A stretch of DNA of 64,000 nucleotides, taken from the NCBI RefSeq assembly GCF_003334255.1, contig NZ_QOWU01000006.1; one strand, 5' to 3'. Numbering within the stretch: position 1 is the stretch's first letter; each line of letters starts with the position of its first letter. The translations under genes and the position numbers were made by a program. This document shows positions 53,813 to 55,858 of the stretch, one piece after another. The stretch is from Escherichia coli. Lineage in GTDB: Bacteria; Pseudomonadota; Gammaproteobacteria; Enterobacterales; Enterobacteriaceae. The notes beneath the pieces are model-generated. The model made no database searches, had not been told where the DNA came from, and was given only the letters and a program-made list of their open reading frames with translations.

Positions 53813-55858
53813 TTATGCGGCGTTGCTGTTATTGATATCCACCGTCACATACTCAATCAGCACGGGGTAGGTGTCCTGGTTACTGGTGATATCCGTGATC
53901 AGCAGTTTGTCGTTATCCAGTCCTGCCGCCGGGCATTTCGCCAGATTAAAGGCCGCCTGGGTCTGACCGTTGATGACCGGTGTCACGCTGATGCTGTTAT
54001 TTCCGGCAAACCGGAACACCACGTTGTGCCAGTTATGATTAAATGCCCCGAAGGTTCCCAGTTTTGCATTCTGTTGTTTGTGCTGCATCAGATTCAGGTT
54101 TGCGCTGTCGCTCTGGATGAAGAAGGCGGCCAGCATATCGTTTCCTGCGCTGCCTTCCAGAACAACGTTTTCAGGTAGCTGAGAAACCGGCCAGTGCAGA
54201 GCCATGGCGAAGCGGTTTTCTGCCAGCTGAACACCTTCCGGGATTTTGAAACGAAAGGCAATTTCCCCGCCTTTCTGAAGTAATTCAGCTGCTTTACTTG
54301 CAGGCACATCGTGGGCGATTTTCCAGGCTGTTTGTTGCCCCTGGACTTTTTCCACTCGCATGGCTTTACCGCTCTCAGCAGCAGAGTCATTTACGACGGA
54401 GGCTTTTCCATCTGCCCCTGTCCAGCCCTGTTCTTTCAGTTTCCCTTCCTGTGCGTCTGCGCGATAAGCGACGGCCGTTGTTCTTGCCGGTGATGACTGC
54501 GTACCTGCGCCCGGCTGAGGTGCAGGTGTGGAGGGCTGCGGGCTTTCCGTGGTGGTGCTGTCTGAACCGGCCGTGGCGGGAGGTACTGCGACCACGCTGA
54601 ACGGTGCGGGTGCACCTTTCAGGAAGGCGACGGTCTTCCCGGCATGCATCAGGATCGCCGTTGCCAGGCGGTCAGAAATAATGCCGCGGCGGGCCCATGA
54701 ACTGAAATGCGTGGCGCGATCTGAAGAGGTCCAGTTTCCGTTACTACGGGATGCAGCACCGTAATAACCGGCTTCTGCCAGATCAGGATCTTCGGCAGGC
54801 AGGTTTGTTGGCGTGTTAGCACCTTTCTCATCGGTCATCAGGGGCACAAAATAAATTTTTTGCGCTTCTTTGTTCTGATATGCACCGTAAACCACCGGGT
54901 ACTGAGAGGTATATTGTTGTTTCCAGATATAGGTGGTATCGCCGCAAATCCAGGGAACAAGTGATGCGTTGCCTCCGGTGCACTGTGCAGCATATGCGCT
55001 GAGATCGGCGCGGAACTGATTCACCATGTTCAGGAATAATTGCGGGTGCTGTGCGTATGTTGCTGATTTCAGATCAAACTCTCCCAGCATCCAGACCACG
55101 GATAACAGGACGTTTTTGGGGTTTTTATCCAGCGCGGCTTTTGTACGGGTAAGCAGATCGTTATACAGCGGTTTGCCGACGCCCCACAGGGATGATTCGG
55201 CCGTTGCTCCTGAAGATTCACTGAATGCCCCCTCTGCGCCGGAAGTAAACGCTGACCCTCCACGACAGCAAGGTACCAGGAGGATCCCGGCATTTTTCGG
55301 GATAAACGCCAGTAATTTTTTGGCAATATGTAAACCCTGTCCGACGCAGCCATACTGACCTTTTGACAGATCGGCGTTCGGATGATTAAGGCTGCTCATA
55401 TCCTGTACATCATGGAGACAGTGATCTGCCGGAATAATATCGTTATAGGTACATGCAGCGCCGCCCGGTGTCACCGTACTGCGACGCGCTAACTGTTTAA
55501 TTCGTGGATCAGGACTGTCGAATGTATCCGGTAATGGCAGCCCCTCACCGTATGCCATGCCATTGGACTGACCAGCCAGTGGCACCACATAATAAAACTC
55601 TGGCTCAGTTGTGTGTCCAGTGTTGTATCCGTCGGTAGTGCCCGGTACGGGTTTTTCCTCGCCTTCTGGTACCGGGATGGCTGATGGCAGGTCTCTGTCA
55701 GTGACCAGTGCCTGCATCAGGTAAAATGGTGCTCCCGGCTCTGATGCTGAGACAGGTCCCCCAAGAAGTCCCCATCCTTCCCTGAGCATGGGCGCAAGTT
55801 TTTCGGCAAGTTCCTTGTTCGTCATTGCCGTCACAAGCTGATAATGTTTCGGTACCAT
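53813..55858 (-). CDS. Prophage cargo esterase (SGNH/SASA-type, NanS-p-like sialate O-acetylesterase candidate)
   Basis: 681 aa; GQSN catalytic-type motif (VVPLAGQSNGMAYGEG), Pro/Thr-rich linker, ~200-aa C-terminal domain; start at ATG 55858 with GGAG upstream. Confidence 0.65.
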   Translation of the reverse strand: MVPKHYQLVTAMTNKELAEKLAPMLREGWGLLGGPVSASEPGAPFYLMQALVTDRDLPSAIPVPEGEEKPVPGTTDGYNTGHTTEPEFYYVVPLAGQSNGMAYGEGLPLPDTFDSPDPRIKQLARRSTVTPGGAACTYNDIIPADHCLHDVQDMSSLNHPNADLSKGQYGCVGQGLHIAKKLLAFIPKNAGILLVPCCRGGSAFTSGAEGAFSESSGATAESSLWGVGKPLYNDLLTRTKAALDKNPKNVLLSVVWMLGEFDLKSATYAQHPQLFLNMVNQFRADLSAYAAQCTGGNASLVPWICGDTTYIWKQQYTSQYPVVYGAYQNKEAQKIYFVPLMTDEKGANTPTNLPAEDPDLAEAGYYGAASRSNGNWTSSDRATHFSSWARRGIISDRLATAILMHAGKTVAFLKGAPAPFSVVAVPPATAGSDSTTTESPQPSTPAPQPGAGTQSSPARTTAVAYRADAQEGKLKEQGWTGADGKASVVNDSAAESGKAMRVEKVQGQQTAWKIAHDVPASKAAELLQKGGEIAFRFKIPEGVQLAENRFAMALHWPVSQLPENVVLEGSAGNDMLAAFFIQSDSANLNLMQHKQQNAKLGTFGAFNHNWHNVVFRFAGNNSISVTPVINGQTQAAFNLAKCPAAGLDNDKLLITDITSNQDTYPVLIEYVTVDINNSNAA

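Follow-up and report, generated by a model that had tools for sequence, protein, structure and literature searches.

The 64,000-nucleotide stretch of Escherichia coli DNA analyzed here (contig NZ_QOWU01000006.1 of assembly GCF_003334255.1; hereafter the window) contains a P2-like prophage in which a nanS-p-type gene (53813–55858, minus strand; 681 amino acids plus stop codon) lies between the spanin gene lysC and the tail gene R. The best overall explanation, to which we give a probability of roughly 80%, is that this gene encodes a late-expressed accessory NanS-p sialate O-acetylesterase which is released at lysis. The enzyme would strip 9-O-acetyl and related groups from sialic acids, both as free sugars and on mucin glycans. 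With the small DUF1378 gene next to it, nanS-p would constitute a dispensable module, long resident in several P2-like (Peduoviridae) lineages as part of their late gpO operon. Its esterase and carbohydrate-binding domains have apparently been exchanged by homologous recombination with the nanS-p genes of co-resident lambdoid prophages, while the N-terminal DUF1737 domain appears to stay with the P2-like backbone.

A six-frame list of open reading frames (ORFs) contains a single long frame at this location (53813–55879, minus strand, 688 amino acids). The ATG at 55858, which gives the 681-residue product, is preceded at a distance of 5 nt by a GGAG Shine-Dalgarno sequence (55864–55867, minus strand, by reading of the sequence), sits 10 nt past the stop codon of lysC (TAA, 55869–55871), and is the start used by RefSeq in identical prophages. 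The alternative start at 55879, which would lengthen the product, falls in an overlap with lysC and is not preceded by a ribosome site. RefSeq calls the same coding sequence in 12 genomes, and the ORF is intact in all 12. These data agree with the coordinates and the length of 681 residues given in a preliminary description of this DNA.

Judged by its matches, the 681-residue protein is a genuine member of the NanS-p family, with all three of its domains recognized by profiles and by the sequences of solved structures. PHROG 143 spans the whole protein (E 1e-295); an NCBIfam search with it assigned no family. The N-terminal DUF1737 domain (residues 1–56; 55691–55858, minus strand) belongs to a class specific to P2-like phages, carries the loop SEPGAPFYLMQA, and was matched in Pfam over residues 4–53 of the 681-residue numbering (E 3.8e-7) as well as by PHROG 2036. 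Its AlphaFold2 model is a beta-alpha-beta-beta fold with a mean predicted local distance difference test score (pLDDT) of 84. Linker 1 (residues 57–84; 55607–55690, minus strand) is of low conservation and has no SSP motif. It leads to a NanS/SASA-type SGNH esterase domain (residues 85–405; 54644–55606, minus strand), delimited by block positions and by alignment to the E. coli NanS (YjhS) structure PDB 3PT5, which is matched over ~320 residues (90–411 of the 688-residue frame; E 6.9e-120). Linker 2 (residues 406–459; 54482–54643, minus strand) is rich in Ala, Pro, Thr and Ser with a G+C content (GC) of 67%, and is followed by a lectin-like jelly-roll domain, DUF6645 (residues 460–681, 222 amino acids; 53816–54481, minus strand), recognized by PDB 6YP6, the C-domain of a NanS-p [E 9e-60], and by Pfam [E 1.9e-39]. 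The small N-terminal domain, central SASA/SGNH region with its GQSN motif, linker and C-terminal domain of about 200 residues which the preliminary description had noticed are all present. Its comparison with the NanS-p 9-O-acetyl-sialate esterases is borne out by the Pfam matches to DUF1737, SASA and DUF6645 together with those to 3PT5 and 6YP6. An SSP motif (residues 455–457; 54494–54502) occurs here in linker 2 only, and in 933W in both linkers; this motif is the proposed autoproteolysis site in gp84 of phage phi24B (10.64898/2026.04.10.717836).

Catalytic residues were assigned through the block positions tabulated for 3PT5 (PMC10792757), supplemented by PMC9487903. Block I (GQSN, residues 96–99) supplies Ser98 (55565–55567), which aligns with Ser19 of 3PT5, and Block V supplies His384 (54707–54709), which aligns with His301. 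Block II (RGGSAF, residues 199–204, including Gly201) is kept relative to 3PT5, and Gly259 and Glu260 of Block III are conserved. The preliminary description had proposed to judge the protein by a Ser-Asp-His triad. This is the wrong test for the family because NanS has no Block V Asp and works by a Ser-His pair together with a main-chain carbonyl (PMC9487903; PMC10792757); the Ser98/His384 pair is intact. Ratios of nonsynonymous to synonymous substitution (dN/dS) between the window and the P2-like prophage L004 are 0.04 for the N-domain, 0.06 for the catalytic domain and 0.22 for the C-domain. All three domains are under functional constraint, the catalytic domain being under strong purifying selection.

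Those NanS-p enzymes which have been tested show esterase activity, are co-induced with the late genes and enable growth on Neu5,9Ac2 (PMC8065619, PMC10462455), and characterized members de-O-acetylate both Neu5,9Ac2 and mucin sialic acids (PMC8065619, PMC10462455, PMC8319020). By homology the present protein would presumably have the same activity and substrates. One might alternatively suppose that not host mucin but bacterial surface polysaccharides, for example O-antigen or the O-acetylated polysialic K1 capsule, are its target, and that it in this manner modifies adsorption receptors or blocks superinfection. The question whether NanS-p plays a part in phage attachment, by removing O-acetyl groups from surface glycans, has been posed in the literature (PMC8065619), and the virion association of the phi24B protein, discussed below, would suit such a role. 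Since the characterized homologs act on Neu5,9Ac2 and mucin glycans, and the 12 host genomes are of varied origin, we consider this target improbable.

The window is 99% identical to, and collinear with, the serS-adjoining prophage of E. coli JNEC-KY208. The gene order (Q P, O N M L X holin lysozyme lysB/lysC, nanS-p, DUF1378, R S V W J I H) is that of a P2-like late region. Upstream of nanS-p lies the spanin pair (55869–56439, minus strand), that is, lysB (55987–56439) with the embedded lysC (stop codon 55869–55871). On the downstream side an AT-rich spacer (53667–53812, minus strand; 40% GC), which also occurs in lambdoid prophages, separates nanS-p from the DUF1378 gene (53493–53666, minus strand). 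The latter matches PHROG 494 [E 6e-28] and specifies a 57-residue protein with, by hydropathy, one predicted membrane helix. The gene for gpR, the tail terminator (53010–53477, minus strand), starts 15 nt past the DUF1378 stop. The extra DNA between lysC and R therefore consists of two genes, the second of which the preliminary description missed, while its statement that P2 has no gene here is correct: in phage P2 lysC overlaps R and nothing lies between them. It had also called the gene a moron. This label fits insofar as the same junction is empty in some relatives (P2, P88) and filled in others; it does not fit insofar as a crude consensus scan found no promoter or terminator of its own and the gaps to the neighboring genes are 10 and 15 nt.

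Given this arrangement, co-transcription with the capsid, lysis and tail-completion genes would be the most economical reading. The N-terminus of the 681-residue protein is not hydrophobic, and it is for this reason predicted to have no signal peptide. Since the gene shows neither a promoter nor a terminator of its own, and its product no signal peptide, we assume that the enzyme is made only in lytic growth, by read-through from the capsid and lysis genes. It would then leave the cell on phage lysis by way of the adjoining holin-endolysin-spanin system.

The 3.1-kb arrangement found in the window occurs, at 98.6% identity or above, in 12 of 5,426 complete E. coli genomes. Every prophage with the window's backbone in these genomes (12) carries the module, and an artificial empty lysC–R junction compared with all of them revealed no empty relative of this backbone. 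A P88/Xuanwuvirus-type junction was found in at least 376 of the same genomes and a third type in 14, so that nanS-p occupies the lysC–R slot in at least three P2-like lineages and, with these three summed, in ~402 complete genomes (~7%). In the P88-type lineage the lysC stop codon overlaps the nanS-p ATG, and 93 bp running from the lysC end to the beginning of R are replaced by a segment of 2.0 kb; P88 itself has no nanS-p. The P0036 allele, which is 77% identical, occupies the slot in a second, diverged P2-like prophage. All 36 matches obtained in a scan of IMG/VR with an alignment of the P2-type N-domain were P2-like phages. These loci share the order gpO-gpN-gpM-gpL...lysB, nanS-p, gpR-gpS-gpV-gpW-gpJ and possess gpN (major capsid) proteins 61–99% identical to that of the window. 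The 90% cluster to which the protein belongs has 744 member sequences. From these data nanS-p in the lysC–R slot is an accessory but common, and old, feature of E. coli Peduoviridae prophages.

Deposited phages give a different picture. Nearly all of the homologs in the phage collection are found in Shiga-toxin (Stx) and other lambdoid phages, at no more than 57% identity, and no close relative of the flanking regions was found there (66–70% identity at best). Nor did we find a description of nanS-p in P2-like phages in the literature searched. Three "phage" records with the P88-type junction were considered as isolated phages and rejected, being prophage predictions which end inside nanS-p. 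With the 84-residue N-terminus as query a word-indexed protein search returned one fragment only, and an exhaustive search of representatives returned 10 weak or short matches, mostly contig-end fragments without usable context. An 809-bp contig of GCA_011710155.1 (L095) encodes an N-domain variant, MNFTQYDLVTASTHDEL...TAPGAPFYLMQAIV, which starts 16 nt past a Phage_lysis (Rz-like) gene and hints at more P2-class alleles in other hosts.

Several points weigh against the interpretation of this gene as a late-expressed, active esterase. The Pfam SASA match (E 2e-8) is partial, covering residues 170–295 only. Block III reads MLGEFD, with Leu258 (55085–55087) at the position of the Gln in the MQGEFD of NanS and 933W NanS-p. 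The SASA-specific (H)QGE hydrogen-bond network includes this Gln (PMC9487903), and with the substitution, possibly by way of the oxyanion-hole network, activity or specificity could differ. Esterase activity has been demonstrated for lambdoid alleles only (PMC8065619), and would extend to P2-borne ones by homology. The minus strand between 53493 and 55868 contained no sigma-70-like promoter or terminator in a crude consensus scan, whose model does not include the Ogr-dependent P2 late promoters. Finally, the gene is not under selection everywhere, because some P88-type alleles are truncated.

One might go further and propose from the Leu258 substitution that the protein is catalytically impaired and retained mostly for its binding domains, or is drifting towards a pseudogene, particularly since an esterase-less protein composed of DUF1737 and C-domain and alleles with in-frame deletions exist. 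The Leu variant is, however, common to L004 and to 45 of the 120 top homologs, lambdoid ones among them. Moreover Ser98, His384, the Block III Gly-Glu pair and Block II are intact, as is the ORF in 12/12 genomes, and the dN/dS of 0.06 in the catalytic domain points to strong purifying selection. Impairment seems to us quite unlikely on these grounds. Most other P2-like alleles have MQGE; all of those checked keep the Gln save L098, in which there was no match to the motif. The esterase-less relative (P0131) is a 294-residue protein in which DUF1737 is joined straight to a DUF6645-like C-domain. The alleles of L108 and L109, which are in P88-type prophages, have 286 residues as the result of an in-frame deletion.

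A three-way DNA comparison revealed that nanS-p is a mosaic. A 2.0-kb tract (53608–55607) extending from nanS-p codon 85, through the spacer and into the first third of the DUF1378 gene is 97% identical overall to the nanS-p/DUF1378 region of the lambdoid prophage L005, and 99–100% identical in most 100-bp windows. The L005 allele lies between antiterminator gene Q and the holin gene (Q...nanS-p-DUF1378-DUF826-holin). The tract also resembles L002, a locus with 933W-type head genes, at 94% identity. By contrast, only the second P2-like prophage, L004, offers a counterpart to the N-domain, to linker 1 and to DUF1378 in its 3' part, and here identity (80–90%) is on a par with that of the flanking lysis and tail genes; DUF1378 accordingly has a lambdoid-like 5' third and a 3' part of the P2-lineage type. 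Among the complete E. coli genomes the N-domain DNA occurs solely in the 12 P2-like prophages. At the protein level the window and L005 are 38% identical in the N-domain, 98% in the catalytic domain and 97% in the C-domain, whereas L005 and 933W are 98%, 75% and 49% identical, respectively, and the window and L004 89%, 86% and 71%. Read from these alignments, the two phage families have exchanged the esterase and C-domains through a gene-conversion-like patch, whose last transfer may have run either way, and the N-domain is inherited with the carrier.

The preliminary description had proposed horizontal exchange with lambdoid prophages, and this is seen directly in the tract. Its implicit picture was of a recent, one-off insertion of an Stx-phage cargo gene into this P2-type prophage. 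The high identity of the tract to a lambdoid allele, the absence of the gene from P2, and a GC slightly below that of the backbone could all be taken in favor of such an event. The difference in GC between the tract (52.1%) and the neighboring backbone (~56%), a comparison which the preliminary description had itself suggested, is small; the N-domain part has 54.6% GC, and the spacer and DUF1378 40–43%. The ends of the tract lie inside nanS-p and inside DUF1378, and the N-domain and DUF1378 3' part which flank it match only another P2-like prophage, having diverged along with the P2-like backbone. As noted above, nanS-p is present in each of the 12 E. coli prophages built on this backbone, and the search for an empty site found none. 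The slot is also filled where gpN is only 61–85% identical. A rare or recent jump does not agree with a slot which is filled in several diverged P2-like lineages (gpN 61–99%) and in ~7% of the complete genomes, and we regard a single recent insertion as very improbable. Long residence of the module, with patchwise exchange of its esterase and C-domains, is the interpretation retained here.

Four contigs, L106, L110 and L126 from IMG/VR and ON470599.1 (L134), possess P2-like gpO...gpL genes and nanS-p on one side and a 933W-type region on the other, the two being joined inside nanS-p. The 933W-type side includes holin S (99%), lysozyme and the GpA terminase. Either true recombination between P2-like and lambdoid phages or chimeric assembly at a multi-copy gene would account for them. 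One further record simply ends within nanS-p. Copies of nanS-p shared by co-resident prophages are spots at which draft assemblies break or become chimeric.

A further possibility is compatible with the enzyme's identity and differs in how the protein works. The NanS-p of phi24B (gp84) was found by cryo-electron microscopy and proteomics to be a capsid decoration protein (2026 preprint, 10.64898/2026.04.10.717836), its DUF1737 domain (residues 2–57) occurring as a hexamer in the hexon pores with an anchoring loop containing Tyr42 (10.64898/2026.04.10.717836). By analogy, the P2-lineage DUF1737 domain might dock in the pore of the gpN hexamer, the esterase and lectin domains then decorating the capsid as gp84 does the T=9 head of phi24B. 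This would help such a phage to adhere to, or move through, O-acetylated sialomucus, and the protein would be a tethered structural component in place of a soluble public good. We put this forward tentatively.

The binding of DUF1737 to hexon pores in the preprint is the first point in its favor, and our beta-alpha-beta-beta model agrees with the verbal description of the phi24B domain given there. Both 933W and L002 combine a phi24B-type N-domain with 933W-type head genes. When N-domain and head modules were classified in 120-odd loci (head-type counts refer to typable loci), the EPGxP[FW]YLMQA class was associated with P2-like heads only (33/33), the 933W type (type E) with 933W-type heads only (4/4) and type B with ClpP-MCP lambda-like heads only (8/8), a co-segregation which is confounded by linkage and shared ancestry. 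The N-domain remains tied to the phage type even where the catalytic and C-domains have been swapped (38%, 98% and 97% between the window and L005). Across eight P2-like representatives N-domain identity follows gpN identity with a Spearman rho of 0.56, as against -0.27 for the catalytic domain and 0.29 for the C-domain; the pairs are non-independent and no P value is claimed, and gpR and gpL give 0.75 and 0.61 in the same comparison. In addition, the predicted beta2-beta3 loop is invariant inside the P2-like classes and the most divergent part between classes, and nanS-p shares its operon with gpO and gpN.

Linkage together with homology-limited gene conversion predicts this pattern equally well without any capsid contact. 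Type A N-domains are found with three different head modules, for which reason a strict one-to-one link between N-domain and head type was rejected, and in L098 and L103 the N-domains are only 71% identical where the gpN proteins are 98% identical. The position of phi24B Tyr42 aligns with a Pro here (loop SEPGAPFY). In phi24B the hexons seen to be bound were all flat, face-centre ones, and the T=7 head of P2, unlike the T=9 shell of phi24B, has none of these. The gene is dispensable, P2 and P88 being without it, and the supporting structure is that of a preprint. A Foldseek comparison of the N-domain model with a copy of the PDB that did not contain the phi24B capsid entries gave nothing significant (best E 0.2).

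Taking both sides together, it is conceivable, if short of even odds, that the Peduoviridae-specific DUF1737 class is a gpN-hexon adaptor through which P2-like E. coli phages display a mucin sialate O-acetylesterase, the payload being swapped with lambdoid phages which use their own head-matched adaptors. NanS-p would in that event be a modular, cross-family capsid-decoration system and not a lysogenic-conversion enzyme. Twelve loci (L052, L054, L058, L070–L074, L077, L082, L083 and L089) encode a 684-residue NanS-p in which DUF1737 is exchanged for an unrelated N-terminus of ~75 residues (MSDSKWKMLSAMPGEF...), for which no PHROG match was found.

Some other features of the prophage deserve mention. 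The gene for gpS (52382–53128) overlaps that for gpV (51804–52400) at 52382–52400, and the prophage is without the terminator, orf30 and P_V promoter gap which separate S and V in P2; the overlap suggests that the layout of the late operon differs from that of P2. Two tandem hok/gef-type segments (39979–40351 and 40454–40827) are situated at the prophage end adjoining serS. They are ~92–93% identical in cross-comparison, and two Hok/Gef genes are annotated in the matching genome. The tail-fiber gene H is intact in the window (48603–49943, 446 amino acids), whereas in the otherwise 99% identical JNEC-KY208 prophage (L001, 15204–16541) the tail-fiber genes are fragmented or pseudogenised.

Discussion of NanS-p has so far been confined almost entirely to its role as a fitness factor in Shiga-toxin and other lambdoid prophages. 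P2-like prophages also carry it regularly, in ~7% of complete E. coli genomes, many of which are not of the kind that produces Shiga toxin (STEC). The esterase and binding domains apparently flow between two phage families while the small N-domain is family-specific. In light of the phi24B anchor finding, the P2-like alleles make it possible to ask, in a natural setting, whether anchor and head type go together, and they bear on virion-borne sialate de-acetylation as a general strategy of gut coliphages.

Among systems with which this one might be compared, T4 Hoc and the P4 Psu protein on P2 gpN hexamers are capsid decoration proteins which bind glycans or hexon centres. If DUF1737 does dock on gpN hexons, the present protein would be, like these, a dispensable, outward-facing and carbohydrate-directed decoration. 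It differs from them in carrying an enzyme and not just immunoglobulin (Ig)-like binding domains. The cargo genes of P2-like phages (the cdt-V operon; P2 orf30) are likewise accessory in some members and located at a junction of essential late genes. The classical P2 cargo sites presumably lie elsewhere than lysC–R, and the present module differs in having no visible transcription signals of its own and in being shared by recombination with another phage family.

Chromosomal NanS (YjhS, 3PT5) has a homologous SGNH/SASA domain. The GQSN, RGGSAF, GEFD and HFSS blocks all recur in the present protein, and both proteins lack the Block V Asp. With its ~330 residues NanS consists of a single domain and belongs to the nan regulon, in contrast to the phage-borne protein with its additional N- and C-domains and Leu258 for Gln.

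The closest parallel is the NanS-p of Stx and other lambdoid phages (933W L0105/z1466; phi24B gp84, that is, vb_24B_21). The DUF1737-SASA-DUF6645 architecture with two low-complexity linkers is the same, as are the catalytic Ser and His and the DUF1378 gene which follows. In both settings the gene neighbors lysis genes within a late transcription unit, and its product is without a signal peptide. Some lambdoid alleles are up to 97–98% identical to the present protein in the catalytic and C-domains. In overall sequence the protein is ~54% identical to 933W-type proteins, from which it differs in an N-domain only ~37% identical to that of 933W with a different, longer beta2-beta3 loop, in a linker 1 without SSP, and in the Block III Leu for Gln. 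The carrier here is a P2-like myovirus prophage and that of the 933W and phi24B proteins a lambdoid phage. Here the gene lies past the spanins and ahead of tail gene R, where the lambdoid position is between Q/stx and holin S (the Q-to-holin arrangement is seen in L002, L005, L007–L011 and 933W); the latter position is a habitual context described in the literature and no property of the protein itself. Ogr-type late activation presumably controls the gene here, as opposed to Q antitermination in the lambdoid phages. On comparison of the sequences, what distinguishes the P2-like alleles is a lineage-specific N-domain class on a known enzyme family, in an unusual but common carrier.

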